A DNA stretch of 64,000 bases. It comes from an uncultured Candidatus Saccharibacteria bacterium (GTDB taxonomy: Bacteria > Patescibacteriota > Minisyncoccia > Phycocordibacterales > VMEP01). Below, piece after piece: positions 3,762 to 64,000 of the stretch. Location of the stretch: the NCBI GenBank assembly GCA_964579635.1, contig CAZOFV010000002.1, positions 1,371-65,370 of the forward strand. Direction: 5' to 3'. Positions within the stretch are counted from its first letter, which is position 1. Each line of letters opens with the position of its first letter. The notes under the pieces were generated by a model that saw nothing but the letters and a program-made list of their open reading frames with translations, was not told where the DNA came from and did not search any database. The translations under genes and the position numbers were made by a program.

Positions 3762-4445
3762 TTATATTTCTAAAAATCCATCTACTAAAAGTTTATAGGC
3801 GTTTCCCTCATCAAGTCCGCGCGACATTGGATAAAACAACTCATCACGAGAAATATCTTTTATGGAAAGTGAATGAGAACAACGAACATCATTACTTGCA
3901 ATATCAAGAGATGGAATTGCGTCAACGCGAGCTTCTTCAGACAAAATCAAAAATGAAGCTGATTCCTCCCCTTTTGCCTCTATGTCTTTACCCATCGCGA
4001 TATCACTTCTGTAAATTACGTGTGCCTTATCTTTAAGAACTCCACGCACGTCAATTTTTGAAATAGTGTGTGATGCCATGTGATAAACCTTGTGATATAC
4101 ATCAACCTCCGATTCACCCACTAAATCATAAGAACTGGTTATCGAAGCTTTAGCACCACGACCGGCTAAAATAATGTGAATATCATTTTTACTAACAACC
4201 TGATTCTTAGAAGATTCAACATATTCAAATGTCGCCCCTTCGCCAACATAAACAATAAGAAGTTTTGATTGAGATAAATTATTTTCTAATTTTGTTGTTT
4301 CGTTTGATGCCACTTCAATTACTTTCCCACCCTTTGCGACGATAGATAAAAACTCCTCCGAAAAAGGAGAGGCTATTTTGAGTCCGTATTTAAAAGCGTT
4401 CGGCTCAACATAAGTATTTAAAATTTCTTTAACGTTATTTTTCAT
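3762..4445 (-). CDS. sufD: Fe-S cluster assembly protein SufD (short form)
   Basis: 227 aa SufB/D-family C-terminal beta-helix region, directly downstream of sufB. Confidence 0.75.
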   Translation of the reverse strand: MKNNVKEILNTYVEPNAFKYGLKIASPFSEEFLSIVAKGGKVIEVASNETTKLENNLSQSKLLIVYVGEGATFEYVESSKNQVVSKNDIHIILAGRGAKASITSSYDLVGESEVDVYHKVYHMASHTISKIDVRGVLKDKAHVIYRSDIAMGKDIEAKGEESASFLILSEEARVDAIPSLDIASNDVRCSHSLSIKDISRDELFYPMSRGLDEGNAYKLLVDGFLEI

Positions 4446-4450
4446 ATTGC

Positions 4451-5800
4451 TTAACCAACACTTCCCTCCATCTCAAGCTCAATCAACTTATTAAGCTCAA
4501 TTGCGTATTCAAGTGGCATGGCCTTAACGATAGGCTCCAAAAAACCGCCAACAATAAGGCGTTCTGCTTCTCTCTCAGAAAAACCGCGTGAACGTAGATA
4601 AAACACCTCATCGTCCCCTAGTCGTCCAACTTTTGCTTCGTGAGAAATATTAACCCTCTTATTATCGTTCTTCGTTGATGGGTATGTATTAGAAACTGAT
4701 TTATCATCCAAAATTAATGCATCACAAACAACAGATGACACCGCGCCTGTTGCGCGCTTCCCTATTTGCACAAACCCGCGATAAGTAGAGATACCGCCAT
4801 CTTTAGAAACTGATTTAGAACGAATCGTAGAAACTGTATCCCTCGCCAAGTGTAGCGCTTTTGCACCTGTGTCTTGATTCTGCCCCTCACCGGCAAGTAC
4901 GATTCCTAAACTATCTGCTTTTGCTCTTGCTCCCAAAAGAACAGACGATGGATAAAGCATCGTCACACATGAACCCATATTGCCGTTGACCCACTGCATT
5001 TCTCCGTCTTCATATACCATCGCTTTTTTGGTGTTTAGGTTGTAGGTGTTGCGTGACCAATTCTCAATACTTAAATATTTTACTTTCGCCCCTTTCATCA
5101 CAAAAACTTCCACACAGCCAGCATGAAGCGATGACGATGTGTATCGTGGAGCAGAACATCCTTCGATGTATTCAATCTCTGAACCTTCGTCGGCGATAAT
5201 TAATGTGTGTTCAAACTGGCCAGCAGATGGGCGGTTCATTCTAAAATACGCTTGCAAAGGCAAGCCAACTTTCACCCCTTTGGGAACATAAATAAAAGTG
5301 CCACCGCTCCAAACGGCACCGTGGAGCATGGTGAACTTATGATCAGAAGATGGCACGCAGTCGGTCATAAAATATTTTTCAACAAGCTCTGGATATTTTT
5401 GCACAGCCACATCCATATTCTCAAAAATAACCCCCTTATCAGCAAGTGATTTTTGAAGATTGTGATAAACAATCCCTGAATCATATTGAGCACCAACCCC
5501 ACCTAAATATTCGCGTTCAGCTTTTGGAATTCCGAGCTTTTCAAAAGTGTCAGTTATTTCTTTAGGGAGTTCTTTCCAGTCAGTAGTTTCCTCAACAGAA
5601 GGGTCAATGTAATAAACAAGATCGTCTAAATTGAGCCCTGATAGCGATGGACCCCAATTTGGGATAAGTGTCTCTTTCCACAAAGAAAAGGCCTCTAGGC
5701 GCTTTTTTAGCATCCAAGCGGGCTCATTCTTACTCTCCGAAATATGGCGCACAAGCGCTTCAGAAAGTCCTTTATTAACCATCTTTTCATCTATTGACAT
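4451..5800 (-). CDS. sufB: Fe-S cluster assembly protein SufB
   Basis: 449 aa, characteristic SufB conservation throughout. First gene of the operon. Confidence 0.9.
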   Translation of the reverse strand: MSIDEKMVNKGLSEALVRHISESKNEPAWMLKKRLEAFSLWKETLIPNWGPSLSGLNLDDLVYYIDPSVEETTDWKELPKEITDTFEKLGIPKAEREYLGGVGAQYDSGIVYHNLQKSLADKGVIFENMDVAVQKYPELVEKYFMTDCVPSSDHKFTMLHGAVWSGGTFIYVPKGVKVGLPLQAYFRMNRPSAGQFEHTLIIADEGSEIEYIEGCSAPRYTSSSLHAGCVEVFVMKGAKVKYLSIENWSRNTYNLNTKKAMVYEDGEMQWVNGNMGSCVTMLYPSSVLLGARAKADSLGIVLAGEGQNQDTGAKALHLARDTVSTIRSKSVSKDGGISTYRGFVQIGKRATGAVSSVVCDALILDDKSVSNTYPSTKNDNKRVNISHEAKVGRLGDDEVFYLRSRGFSEREAERLIVGGFLEPIVKAMPLEYAIELNKLIELEMEGSVG

Positions 5801-19577: not shown

Positions 19578-19613
19578 ACAAAAAAGCTGTCCTTTCTAGG
19601 ACAGCTTTTTTGA
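19578..19613. terminator. Bidirectional terminator after rpsP
   Basis: AGCTGTCCT-ttct-AGGACAGCT hairpin flanked by an A-run and a T-run. Confidence 0.65.
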
Positions 19614-46421: not shown

Positions 46422-47783
46422 CTATTTCGCATTCTCTTTCCCCCGTTTTTTAGGCCCTAGAAGAGGTAGCGTCACGTAAAAAATAGTACCCTTCTCACCC
46501 TCCCCAAAAGACTTAAACCAAACTTTCCCCCCAGAATTTTCAACAATCGACTTTACAATATAAAGGCCTAATCCCGTCCCGTCGGTATCTTTATCTCTAA
46601 CATTATCTGCCCTAAACAACTTGGTGAATATTTTATCTTGTTGGTTTTTTGGTATGCCATAACCATTATCAATAACCTTCAGAAGAACATTATTTTTTTC
46701 AGCCGACGAAATTGATATATTTATTTTTCCACCTTCGGGCGTATACTTTACCGCGTTTGATAAAATATTCTGTACTACCATTCGTAAATGCTTTGGGTCG
46801 GCGTGCATAACTCCAATATTTTTTTCAAACGAAAAAGAAAACGAGATTTTTCTAGCATTAATTTGGGGTTTCTGTTCGTCTATCACACTTTGCGCAAGTT
46901 TGGTTATATCTATTGATTCTGGTTCAACTATAAACGTCCCCAACTCAAGCGAGGAAACATCTAAAAGGGCATTTACCAATTCAACCATACGTTGGTTACT
47001 ACGATAAACCTCGTCGAGATATTTTTTTTGTTTTTCGTTCAACTCCCCAACATCTCCAGCTAAAAGCATTTCCGCGTACCAATTAACCGTAGATAGCGGG
47101 GTACGAAGCTGGTGGCTAGCAAGGGAAACGAATTCTGTTTTAGCTTTATCGATTTCTCTTTCAGAGGTTATATCTCTAAAAATCTTAATTGCTCCTATAA
47201 CCTTACCCTTAAAAATTACTGGGGTTGCCATGATGGCCACCGGAAACTTTGTTTTATCTTTCCTTCTGTAGTAATAAGTTGAAAGAGAAGTAGTTGTATT
47301 ATTGCTCAAAACTGTCTTTGCTTGATACTGTTCTAACGCGACAGGTAACCCTTTTTCGTTTTCGAAAACAACAACCTCGGAAAAAACCTTTCCTATTGTT
47401 TCATTGCTTTTTTTACCAAACAACTTTTCAGCTGTTTTGTTCATAATAATAACAACCCCTTTTTCATCTGTAACAAGAAGTCCGTCACCAATTGATAACA
47501 ATATTGCCTCTTCTTTCACCCTAGCCATTTCAAGGTCCTTGGTGCGTTCAAAAACCTTACGCTCCAATGTTTCGTGTGACTTCTTAAGTTTTTCTGCTGT
47601 TACTACAAGCTTACGTCTAACTACCTCTTTCTCTCGTGCAGTAATAGCAAGTTTCTTTGCCGTTACAGCAAGCTCTCTTGCTGTAACGGCAAGCTTACGT
47701 CGAACAACCTCTTTTTCTTTAGCTAAAACTTTAAGGTTACGAATTATTTCATTGGAAACGGAGGTGATGATATTTTTTTTCAT
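46422..47783 (-). CDS. Cytoplasmic sensor histidine kinase (heptad-repeat N-terminus, PAS, HisKA, HATPase_c)
   Basis: H-box SHQLRTPLS, N/G boxes (DNGYGIP, GTGLGLYIVK). N-terminal (E/K)LAVTA(R/K) tandem repeats. Confidence 0.85.
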   Translation of the reverse strand: MKKNIITSVSNEIIRNLKVLAKEKEVVRRKLAVTARELAVTAKKLAITAREKEVVRRKLVVTAEKLKKSHETLERKVFERTKDLEMARVKEEAILLSIGDGLLVTDEKGVVIIMNKTAEKLFGKKSNETIGKVFSEVVVFENEKGLPVALEQYQAKTVLSNNTTTSLSTYYYRRKDKTKFPVAIMATPVIFKGKVIGAIKIFRDITSEREIDKAKTEFVSLASHQLRTPLSTVNWYAEMLLAGDVGELNEKQKKYLDEVYRSNQRMVELVNALLDVSSLELGTFIVEPESIDITKLAQSVIDEQKPQINARKISFSFSFEKNIGVMHADPKHLRMVVQNILSNAVKYTPEGGKINISISSAEKNNVLLKVIDNGYGIPKNQQDKIFTKLFRADNVRDKDTDGTGLGLYIVKSIVENSGGKVWFKSFGEGEKGTIFYVTLPLLGPKKRGKENAK

Positions 47784-50763: not shown

Positions 50764-50833
50764 TTAAAATTTCAGTATTCATAAAAAAAGAGACTGTGTT
50801 ATATAACACAGTCTCTTTTTTTATGAATTTATT

Positions 50834-62682: not shown

Positions 62683-62770
62683 AGATTAATTTCTCCAATT
62701 GTATCAAAACATAGAACGAAAAAATAGCCCGTAAACCTTAACCTCACTTGGAGGTTGAACCTCCAAGTGG

Positions 62771-63457
62771 TTATTCTAATAAAAATTTTTCTAAGTCTTT
62801 CATGTCTTCCTTTCTTTTCCTAATCATTTCTAAAGATGACAAGGAGAATTTCTTGTATTCATCAATATTATTATTAAATTGATCTAAAATAATTTTCTTT
62901 TCACAGATACCTTTAGTATTTTTATCTATATACTCTCCCCAACTAGACCTACTTCCCGCCAACTTGGAGGTTAAACCTCCAAGTTGGTGAACTTTGTTAT
63001 TTAAATTAACGTAGGCACTAAGATGAAGAAGGTATTCATTAGTACCTACGTGAACTGATTTAAATCTACCTTGGAATAAAGCACCACTTCGTTTTTCCTT
63101 TTCATTAAAATACATTGTGTATCCTGTCCCCAGTCGATGCATAAATTTTTCAATCCCCTTTTCTGAAGACTGCATAACTATAAAATGAAAATGGTTTGGG
63201 TTAAGGCAAAAAGCTACGAAATCAACTAATTTTTGACTCCCTTTTCTCAACTTGGAGGTTGAACCTCCAAGTTGAGACTTTTTTATAAAAGAATTTTCAT
63301 AGATACTTCCTATTGGCTCAGAAACATTGAATTCAATCATGCTTTGAAAAAAGCGATTCAAATCTTTTTGATCTGAGAAAATGCTTCGTTTATCTATTCC
63401 CCTATTATAAAGATGATAATATTCACCAGTTACGAACGGAGTTTTTCTATTTGTCAT
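62771..63457 (-). CDS. IS200/IS605-like HuH transposase (REP-associated tyrosine transposase-like)
   Basis: YHLYNRG motif, HuH NHFHFIV, then QGRFKS...LSAYVNLN with the catalytic Tyr. Two in-frame QLGG(S/L)TSKL segments are encoded by the internal hairpins. Confidence 0.6.
   Translation of the reverse strand: MTNRKTPFVTGEYYHLYNRGIDKRSIFSDQKDLNRFFQSMIEFNVSEPIGSIYENSFIKKSQLGGSTSKLRKGSQKLVDFVAFCLNPNHFHFIVMQSSEKGIEKFMHRLGTGYTMYFNEKEKRSGALFQGRFKSVHVGTNEYLLHLSAYVNLNNKVHQLGGLTSKLAGSRSSWGEYIDKNTKGICEKKIILDQFNNNIDEYKKFSLSSLEMIRKRKEDMKDLEKFLLE
62959..62987. repeat. Internal copy of the hairpin repeat (29 bp) within the transposase ORF
   Basis: CCAACTTGGAGGTTAAACCTCCAAGTTGG, translated as QLGGLTSKL. 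Confidence 0.6.
63247..63275. repeat. Internal copy of the hairpin repeat (29 bp) within the transposase ORF
   Basis: TCAACTTGGAGGTTGAACCTCCAAGTTGA, translated as QLGGSTSKL. Confidence 0.6.
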
Positions 63458-63510
63458 ATATAACTGATTATTTTACTACTTGGAGGTTGAACCTCCAAGT
63501 AGTAATGTGG

Positions 63511-64000
63511 CTAGCGAGCTAAGTTATAAAGCTGTTTAATTTCTGTAGCGGAAAGAGCACGGTTATACAAACGCACATCATCTATTTTCCCATTAAATGT
63601 ATACGTTCCGGGGCTAAGGCCCATTCCTCCAATAGCAGCCGGGTAAGTTGCGGGAGAACCAACACCAAGAGTACTGTTCGCCGAATTACTCAAAAGACCG
63701 TCTACATACACACGTAAAACAGCACCATCATAAGAAAAAGCAACATGTCTCCATTTTATATCTATTCCTTGATAAGCAGAGGTAACATATGCGGCTGTGC
63801 TGTTCCATATACCGCCGGTAACTCTACCGTTAGTATATTGCAAATCTATTCCGTTATATGCGCCACAACAATCTCTCGCACTACTATATATATATCCATA
63901 ACTAACCGTCGTTGTTGCCGGATACAACCAAGCAGAAATAGTAAAATTTGCCGGATTTAATGTAGTACTTGTTCCAAGGGTTACATAGGAACCAGAGCTT
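63511..64000 (-). CDS. LamG/concanavalin-A-like lectin domain protein (C-terminal part; the gene continues beyond the window)
   Basis: C-terminal GKIDDVRLYNRALSATEI, typical of LamG-domain proteins. The ORF is open to the window edge. Confidence 0.55.
   Translation of the reverse strand, partial: SSGSYVTLGTSTTLNPANFTISAWLYPATTTVSYGYIYSSARDCCGAYNGIDLQYTNGRVTGGIWNSTAAYVTSAYQGIDIKWRHVAFSYDGAVLRVYVDGLLSNSANSTLGVGSPATYPAAIGGMGLSPGTYTFNGKIDDVRLYNRALSATEIKQLYNLAR

Follow-up and report, generated by a model that had tools for sequence, protein, structure and literature searches.

We examined a 64,000-nt stretch of contig CAZOFV010000002.1 (assembly GCA_964579635.1) from an uncultured Candidatus Saccharibacteria bacterium; this whole stretch is hereafter called the window. 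Near its end lies a small gene for a HUH/Y1 nuclease that resembles the REP-associated tyrosine transposases (RAYTs; REP, repetitive extragenic palindromic sequence), together with four copies of one hairpin-forming repeat (Table 1). The initial annotation, made from the letters of the window, had reported four hairpins with a common core, one just past each end of the open reading frame (ORF) and two in frame within it. The core, CTTGGAGGTTRAACCTCCAAG, is indeed present four times, at 62747, 62963, 63251 and 63479, against a chance expectation of 0.01 per 64-kb window. In the direction of the gene, we refer to these copies as U (upstream), I1 and I2 (internal) and D (downstream). The gap-rpiB operon comes after the nuclease gene and the D hairpin, on the same strand.

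Table 1. Features of the nuclease locus, in coordinates of the 64,000-nt window.
Feature	Position	Strand	Description
HUH/Y1 (RAYT-like) nuclease gene	62771-63457	minus	Open ORF, 228 aa
HUH motif H89-F90-H91	63185-63193	minus	In the 228-aa Y1 protein
Catalytic Tyr149	63011-63013	minus	In the 228-aa Y1 protein
-10-like box TAAAAT	63471-63476	minus	2 nt past the U hairpin core, 13 nt 5' of the ATG; putative promoter
Upstream hairpin U	63473-63505	no strand	16-bp perfect palindrome TTACTACTTGGAGGTT(C/G)AACCTCCAAGTAGTAA, centre 32 nt 5' of the ATG
Internal hairpin I1	63245-63277	no strand	16-bp palindrome, in frame as S-QLGGSTSKL-R, residues 61-71
Internal hairpin I2	62959-62987	no strand	14-bp palindrome, in frame as (H)QLGGLTSKL, residues 157-166
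Downstream hairpin D	62745-62769	no strand	12-bp palindrome, begins 2 nt past the TAA stop

Folded as single-stranded DNA (ssDNA), the U, I1, I2 and D hairpins have free energies of -15.0, -16.3, -14.7 and -11.6 kcal/mol, respectively, with z scores between -5.5 and -11 (-11 for U). In both internal copies the loop falls exactly on the middle codon of the encoded peptide. The I1 peptide (QLGGSTSKL, residues 62-70) lies 5' of the HUH motif, between helix 30-42 and strand 78-85; a YNRG motif stands N-terminal to it. The I2 peptide (QLGGLTSKL, residues 158-166) directly follows the helix that carries the catalytic tyrosine. Thus, of the earlier statement that the internal copies lie between the conserved motifs, the part on I1 stands (YNRG to HUH), and I2 is found past Tyr149, not between the HUH motif and the tyrosine. 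The stem extensions, which had been noted to differ from copy to copy while always pairing, proved to be a property of the repeat family: the palindrome extends at least 3 bp past a 23-nt core in 35 of 128 dereplicated metagenomic copies, where 2 would be expected.

Some simpler accounts of the arrangement were discarded. The spacings between hairpin centres (216, 288 and 228 nt) are all multiples of three, but those of locus L003, measured by hand, are 215, 279 and 213 nt, and the regularity is coincidental for the outer hairpins. A CRISPR-like array was rejected because its "spacers" are conserved coding segments, and an assembly artefact because hundreds of independent assemblies show the identical layout. 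Finally, the palindrome runs continuously to a centre of 1-3 nt and its stem extensions are specific to each copy, which points to a folded strand rather than to the operator of a dimeric repressor.

The Pfam profile Y1_Tnp (PF01797) matches residues 75-151 of the 228-aa protein with 33.3 bits (E = 5.7e-8), above its curated cut-off of 23 bits, and the assignment of the open ORF to HUH genes of the RAYT/IS200 type holds. A protein search returned 3495 intact homologues, nearly all of 215-245 aa (most of about 220-230 aa), and those with a source name given are Patescibacteria. Residues H89, H91 and Y149 are invariant in an alignment of 111 sequences; other signatures of the family are NH[YF]H, FQ, an SS tail and a length of about 225 aa. 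The gene is under strong purifying selection, with dN/dS of 0.03-0.08 in the least saturated pairs, and the window protein was found identical on three independent assemblies. Read sets that contain the locus include SRR13723393, SRR13723394 and SRR13723397.

An AlphaFold2 model built from the 111 sequences reached a pLDDT of 75 and a pTM of 0.76 (an earlier model from 23 sequences, with a pLDDT of 57, was too poor). Its confidence is low only at residues 1-4, 21-23, 50-73 and 159-164; segment 50-73 contains I1, and 159-164 is the centre of I2. According to the model, both peptides thus sit in disordered, tolerated loops, in line with the loop insertion that the initial annotation had offered as one of its two explanations. 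The best fold match was 4er8_A, the Escherichia coli RAYT bound to a REP hairpin (E 2.7e-5, probability 1.00, TMt 0.59), and the transposases of IS608 and ISDra2 matched more weakly. The family alignment, used as a profile against PDB sequences, gave nothing at E <= 1, so that the link to 4er8 comes from the fold search alone.

For comparison of loci, we fetched 80 genomic loci from metagenome-assembled genomes (MAGs) of Patescibacteria. Most of them carry a strong palindrome at four equivalent places: about 30 nt 5' of the ATG, near nt +175, near nt +450 and directly past the stop codon. The U position is occupied in about 75 of 78 scorable loci, with the hairpin centred at -29 (median) relative to the ATG, and the D position in about 60-70 of 79. 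I2 is a perfect palindrome in about 75% of the loci and is missing in the group of loci situated between ftsA and ftsZ. In the I1 loop, the length of which varies among loci, a hairpin was seen in about 45-60 of the 80 and was absent from about nine or more; intact, conserved genes without I1 are those of L021, L038, L042, L051, L053, L056, L057, L062 and L080. Since some lineages have lost I1 or I2, the internal copies are dispensable for the function of the protein.

At both internal sites QLGGxTSKL is the consensus in alignments of 23 and of 111 sequences; L63, G64, K69, Q158, L159, G160, K165 and L166 vary little or not at all, whereas the middle residue is free. The internal segments are therefore features of the family and not recent insertions, and the idea of an unusual self-insertion in this particular genome had to be dropped. 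The four-hairpin layout is a lineage-wide design, neither a recent accident nor the mark of a dead gene. The initial annotation had itself allowed that alignment might reveal these segments as ancestral parts of the family. The consensus bears this out; what is conserved, as the following comparisons demonstrate, is a covarying DNA palindrome rather than a peptide.

The palindromes vary by locus, for example GTGGCGGTCCGACCGCCAC in L025, CCCAGGAGCTCAGCTCCTGGG in L058 and ACTTGGACATCGAATGTCCAAGT in L027, and the encoded peptide shifts with the palindrome, to LGHRMSK, LGDSVSK and LGCPTPK, respectively. The 10-nt arm is identical in 67% of site pairs within a locus versus 4.9% between loci. Covariation at I2 was measured, irrespective of whether a hairpin was present, over nine codons (27 nt) at a fixed offset past the Y motif of each of the 80 loci. 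Pairing was found in 82.8% of cells, compared with 26-45% when the partner was slid, and 11 of the 12 pairs showed double-sided changes. On each of four measures at I2, namely percentage paired, double-sided cells, further pair types and covariation score, every shuffle fell short of what was observed. The stems are strictly Watson-Crick, with very few G-T pairs. From the genetic code alone, LGGxTSK written with random synonymous codons would yield the palindrome about once in 4600 cases, and synonymous sites elsewhere in the gene are near saturation (pS, the proportion of synonymous differences, 0.5-0.85). It is the DNA palindrome that is conserved, co-varying with the flanking copies, and not the peptide.

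Change in the copies of one locus is concerted. Among five orthologous loci between ftsA and ftsZ, the foot of the hairpin has changed from CTTGGAGGC to CTGAGAGGC in L041, on both arms of all three copies at the gene and in a dispersed copy 860 nt away. Units that bear a mismatch recur at other sites of their own locus in either orientation (L009, L013, L017 and L066), which argues for copying and not for independent selection at each site.

As a separate observation, locus L045 (gene at 1315-1995) has outer hairpins, TTGAGAGGCTGAGCCTCTCAA, that differ from its inner pair, GTTTGGACACTCGGTGTCCAAAC; in top stem and loop, the inner type is similar to CTTAGACACTCGGTGTCTAAG, the hairpin of the paralogue L044 from the same MAG. 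This hints at hairpin exchange between the two paralogous loci.

The U hairpin is closely associated with a candidate promoter. Most loci read ...CCAAGTG-G-TAnAAT directly after the upstream hairpin. A match of at least 5/6 to the -10 box, ending 5-10 nt (mode 6) 5' of the ATG, was found in 45 of 79 loci, compared with 4.7% in shuffled sequences, and 34 of these 45 have a TG at -15/-14 that is furnished by the foot of the hairpin. This family-wide conservation of the box, on which we base the promoter assignment, suggests an extended -10 promoter and a leaderless or nearly leaderless mRNA. With such a start the U hairpin would lie outside the gene's own transcript, at a place where a bound protein or the extruded structure might block RNA polymerase.

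A scan of metagenomes with the window's 23-nt core identified 141 copies on 120 loci, which bears out the earlier suggestion of a genomic repeat widespread in the lineage. Twenty-nine copies are at a Y1 gene, solely at offsets of -40 to -21, 194-201, 456-504 and 639-786. The remaining 112 are away from one (106 on locus sequences without a Y1 gene and 6 far from it). Eighty-three dispersed copies could be classified: 53 are inside long stop-free ORFs, 22 are intergenic and 8 are at ORF ends. Contrary to the expectation that REPs are extragenic, most classifiable dispersed copies in this lineage are therefore intragenic. Five of the six reading frames through the repeat are free of stop codons, and the 53 intragenic copies are read as LEV[EQ]PPS (27), LGGSTSK (20) or TWR[LF]NLQV (6). 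The repeat consensus is perfectly palindromic; its foot, ACTTGG...CCAAGT, is conserved, and its top and loop are specific to the lineage. Hairpins of the family type in the sequences flanking the gene at the 80 genome loci were of the local variant in 15 cases and of another variant in 3.

Host ORFs with in-frame copies, named by reading their sequences, include those for ValRS, TopA, ArgRS, SecA, IleRS, RNase R, RecJ, GatB and UvrC; these housekeeping hosts are on metagenome loci L091, L104, L111, L129, L161, L160, L170, L154 and L110. UvrC is the only host ORF confirmed by a PDB match, and the solved chains of its homologues span residues 1-99 only, short of the hairpin. Some genes have two or three copies, or units placed back to back (LEVEPP-LGGSTSK in ArgRS and IleRS). 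Relative to their orthologues, the hairpins in these other genes would be insertions.

Two further repeats were encountered in these sequences. The 120 metagenome loci contain nine occurrences of the non-palindromic AGCTTAACGCCACA, read as SLTPQ, which is found in ArgRS (L111 at nt ~1644) and repeatedly in IleRS (L161 at nt ~1062, 2649 and 2824). Locus L018 has an AT-richer palindrome, AATTGAAGTC(A/T)GACTTCAATT, three times, about 745, 1527 and 2116 nt past the Y1 start codon; it may belong to another repeat family of that genome.

The Y1 gene is present in one copy per locus in the 80 loci, and its positions are syntenic. In one group (the window, L001, L008, L010 and L078) it lies about 100 nt 5' of gap-rpiB on the same strand. 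In a second (L031, L036, L041, L046 and L052) it is found at 4001-4650 of each locus between ftsA and ftsZ, again on the same strand; these two genes are normally neighbours in bacteria. A third group adjoins ksgA. Within the ftsA-ftsZ group, Y1 identity is correlated with FtsZ identity (rho 0.80, p = 0.005). Paralogues from the same genome (L007/L012, L014/L078 and L044/L045) have different hairpins. The Y1 gene thus behaves as a domesticated gene and not as an active insertion sequence (IS).

Taken together, the locus is probably a REPtron-like unit: a domesticated RAYT-like Y1 HUH nuclease with its cognate REP-like palindromes, two of which sit in tolerated loops of the enzyme itself. The gene would be mostly vertically inherited, paired with a cognate repeat dispersed at low density. 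By analogy with TnpA(REP) of E. coli, the Y1 protein may bind the folded single-stranded hairpin and cleave and rejoin DNA beside it. Either this activity or template switching between nearby copies could spread the repeat and overwrite old copies with the current master sequence, and such overwriting would explain why all copies in a locus and genome change jointly. Binding at the promoter-proximal U copy may lead to autoregulation. The internal copies are most likely tolerated substrate copies that are inherited together with the gene and, given that some lineages lost one of them, they are not needed for its function.

Several observations weigh against this reading. Binding, cleavage and copying by the Y1 protein are proposed by analogy with the 4er8 protein, which is only 12% identical to that of the window. 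The NCBIfam equivalog model for RAYTs, REP_Tyr_transpos, scored 24.5 bits against a cut-off of 80. In place of the class-2 Y motif, Y---NP, the family has Y(V/I)NLN(D/N), in which the Asn is kept and the Pro replaced. No GT[AG]G guide stands 5' of the hairpin foot, where the consensus reads (c)cACTTGG...CCAAGTg(g); GTGG/GTAG-like sequence occurs only 3' of the foot, within the stem extension. The divergence of Y1 and of GAPDH is uncorrelated in the gap group (rho 0.42, not significant), which leaves room for replacement by horizontal transfer. Homogenisation is not universal, as decaying hairpin copies in L036 and L046 indicate. The window's own box is 13 nt, not 6, from the ATG and is a match to a consensus only, and a generic promoter scan did not call this site. 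Finally, a search of the 64 kb that allowed up to 3 mismatches found no fifth copy of the core and thus no dispersed copies; in the genome of the window the repeat may be confined to the Y1 gene.

In one variant of the REPtron-like reading, the in-frame hairpins have been selected as a means for a domesticated HUH nuclease to carry, within its coding sequence, master copies of the DNA on which it acts. We regard this as doubtful. If true, enzyme and repeat would be re-specified, as well as inherited and transferred, as one, and the promoter copy would provide feedback. The unit would be a self-contained replicator in which the structure of the substrate dictates part of the protein sequence and the nuclease rewrites every copy, including those in its own gene.

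More generally, the internal hairpins might be functional cis-elements instead of passengers. They could serve as master copies through which substrate and enzyme stay co-inherited and co-evolve, as autoregulatory sites where folded DNA or RNA is sensed by the nuclease or the ribosome, or as recombination sites for an in-frame excision of the catalytic core between I1 and I2. The persistence of I2 as a perfect palindrome in most loci despite near-saturated synonymous sites, the fixed positions in the fold, one before and one after the HUH-Tyr core, and the continued mutual identity of the four copies would all fit such a function; since I1 and I2 are both in frame, recombination between them would also keep the frame open. 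However, intact and conserved genes exist without I1 (nine loci) or without I2 (the ftsA-ftsZ group), and the same hairpin is in frame in many unrelated genes, housekeeping genes included, for which a function of this kind would not be expected. Among the homologues, no variant with a deletion or excision was seen. We therefore consider a cis-acting role of the internal copies unlikely.

An autonomous IS of the IS200 type, with the outer hairpins as the subterminal ends of an element of ~760 bp that transposes as ssDNA, is improbable, although one small Y1 gene between two hairpins has the size and layout of such an element and occurs at several genomic positions across lineages, even inside the otherwise adjacent ftsA-ftsZ pair. 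By analogy, the family would share with the transposases of IS608 and ISDra2 the HUH/Y1 chemistry on ssDNA hairpins. IS200/IS605 elements are multicopy, have imperfect hairpins and the Y---Q signature (PMC6006769) and encode proteins of about 150 aa, whereas here a 228-aa protein with Y--NLN is encoded once per locus and once in the 64-kb window. The positions are syntenic over deep divergence, the gene co-diverges with FtsZ, and the paralogues within a genome are divergent and have different hairpins. All hairpins at a locus are identical perfect palindromes with no distinct imperfect ends, the hairpin is dispersed alone, without the gene, and the fold is closest to that of a RAYT, not of IS608.

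Still less probable is that the hairpins act mainly as mRNA structures, in stability, termination or translation control, and that their link to the Y1 gene is incidental. Three of the four copies would be transcribed or lie at the 3' end of the transcript, and elsewhere REPs are believed to function at the RNA level (PMC3733652). Three copies also fit a terminator-like pattern; the match, however, is to the plus strand and thus antisense to the gene. The U copy lies 5' of the predicted transcription start, and copies are found in either orientation, with the loops flipped, and within other genes they occupy every frame. The stems keep to Watson-Crick pairs with hardly any G-T, a scan of the region with Rfam yielded chance hits below threshold only, and the hairpin variants follow the resident Y1 gene by 15 to 3.

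That the ORF is a pseudogene which happens to have stayed open after self-insertion of REPs, the other explanation offered initially, has nothing in its favour beyond the odd look of repeats within an ORF, and it is refuted by the low dN/dS, the 3495 full-length homologues, the invariant catalytic residues, the identical protein on three assemblies and the fact that the inserted peptides are the family consensus.

As a REPtron-like unit, the locus can be compared with described systems. With the REPtrons of the E. coli yafM type (4ER8) it shares the Y1 HUH fold, low copy number, largely vertical inheritance and divergent paralogues, as well as a palindromic repeat that lies on both flanks of the gene, is dispersed in the genome and tracks the gene variant. 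Unlike REPtrons, the Patescibacteria family has no 5' GTAG/GTGG guide, has Y--NLN in place of Y---NP and scores below the NCBIfam cut-off. It has two extra copies at fixed, family-wide positions in the ORF, its upstream copy overlaps the putative promoter, and its dispersed copies are mostly intragenic. Perfect-palindrome REPs are described by Corneloup et al. 2021 (PMC8266576) as a recognised group that has co-evolved with its TnpA(REP).

In the classification of TnpA(Y1) proteins by Quentin et al. 2018 (PMC6006769), a term search of which returned no mention of Patescibacteria, subclass 2.4 (RAYT group 4, from Cyanobacteria and Bacteroidetes) has in-frame REPs of variable length and sequence between HUH and Tyr (Fig. 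S10 of that work). REPs in frame within the cognate transposase, which the initial annotation had thought unusual, were therefore already on record. Those insertions occupy a variable region at the periphery, which was considered distant from the catalytic and DNA-binding sites, and the motifs of the subclass are YIxNNP and WQ (PMC6006769). The family described here likewise has cognate REPs beside and inside the nuclease gene with the frame unbroken. In contrast to subclass 2.4, it has two fixed sites, before HUH and after Tyr and thus outside the HUH-Tyr interval, which change in concert and are present in most members, and its motifs are FQ and Y--NLN. Its motif set resembles that of subclass 2.1 (NH[YF]H, FQ and an SS tail), which was reported without REPs (PMC6006769), yet it carries repeats.

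Intragenic palindromes are known from other bacteria: Di Nocera et al. 2013 (PMC3733652) describe intragenic GTAG/CGTC REPs and Rickettsia palindromic elements (RPEs) in many genes. Like these, the Patescibacteria repeat is a short palindrome that is in frame in many genes, replication and repair genes included, and is tolerated as an extra loop. The surveys of RPEs and intragenic REPs describe no fixed-position repeats inside a cognate nuclease gene, which the Patescibacteria family has. Its unit, a perfect palindrome, also differs in measuring about 21-27 nt and in being linked to a Y1 gene; RPEs reach about 100-150 bp and are not known to have a cognate nuclease gene.

Repeats inside a cognate nuclease gene and in-frame palindromes in genes are thus already known. 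What is distinctive is the phylum-wide, fixed four-site architecture, the overlap with the putative promoter, the visible concerted change and the mostly intragenic dispersal. A literature search found no paper on this system in Patescibacteria or the Candidate Phyla Radiation; its coverage was incomplete, and novelty is therefore unproven.

In bacteria, long-lived intragenomic replicators are best exemplified by RAYTs and their REPs, and how REPs are copied and kept homogeneous is a standing question. The loci described here amount to a natural experiment, with four alignable fixed sites, two of them under protein-coding constraint, and concerted change between orthologous loci, so that copying and overwriting of REPs become directly visible and testable. 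If the overlap with the promoter is real, the REPtron concept would gain a simple circuit of autoregulation. Palindromes in essential genes (aminoacyl-tRNA synthetases, TopA, SecA and UvrC) are tolerated in the small, gene-dense genomes of these ultrasmall bacteria, a point of relevance to protein annotation, to unexplained "insertions" and to the quality of assembly and gene calling in Patescibacteria.

Two minor observations concern the surroundings of the gene. The end of its upstream neighbour in the window (63511-64000, minus strand) has the motif GKIDDVRLYNRALS, which looks like a LamG/concanavalin-like domain, and large homologous proteins recur as upstream neighbours of the Y1 gene in the unrelated loci L015, L024, L037 and L051. 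The window also contains other long perfect inverted repeats, at 50777-50828, 47657-47692 and 19579-19612, with stems of 25, 16 and 15 bp, respectively. Their sequences are unrelated to that of the Y1 hairpin, and some, with runs of A/T, look like bidirectional terminators.

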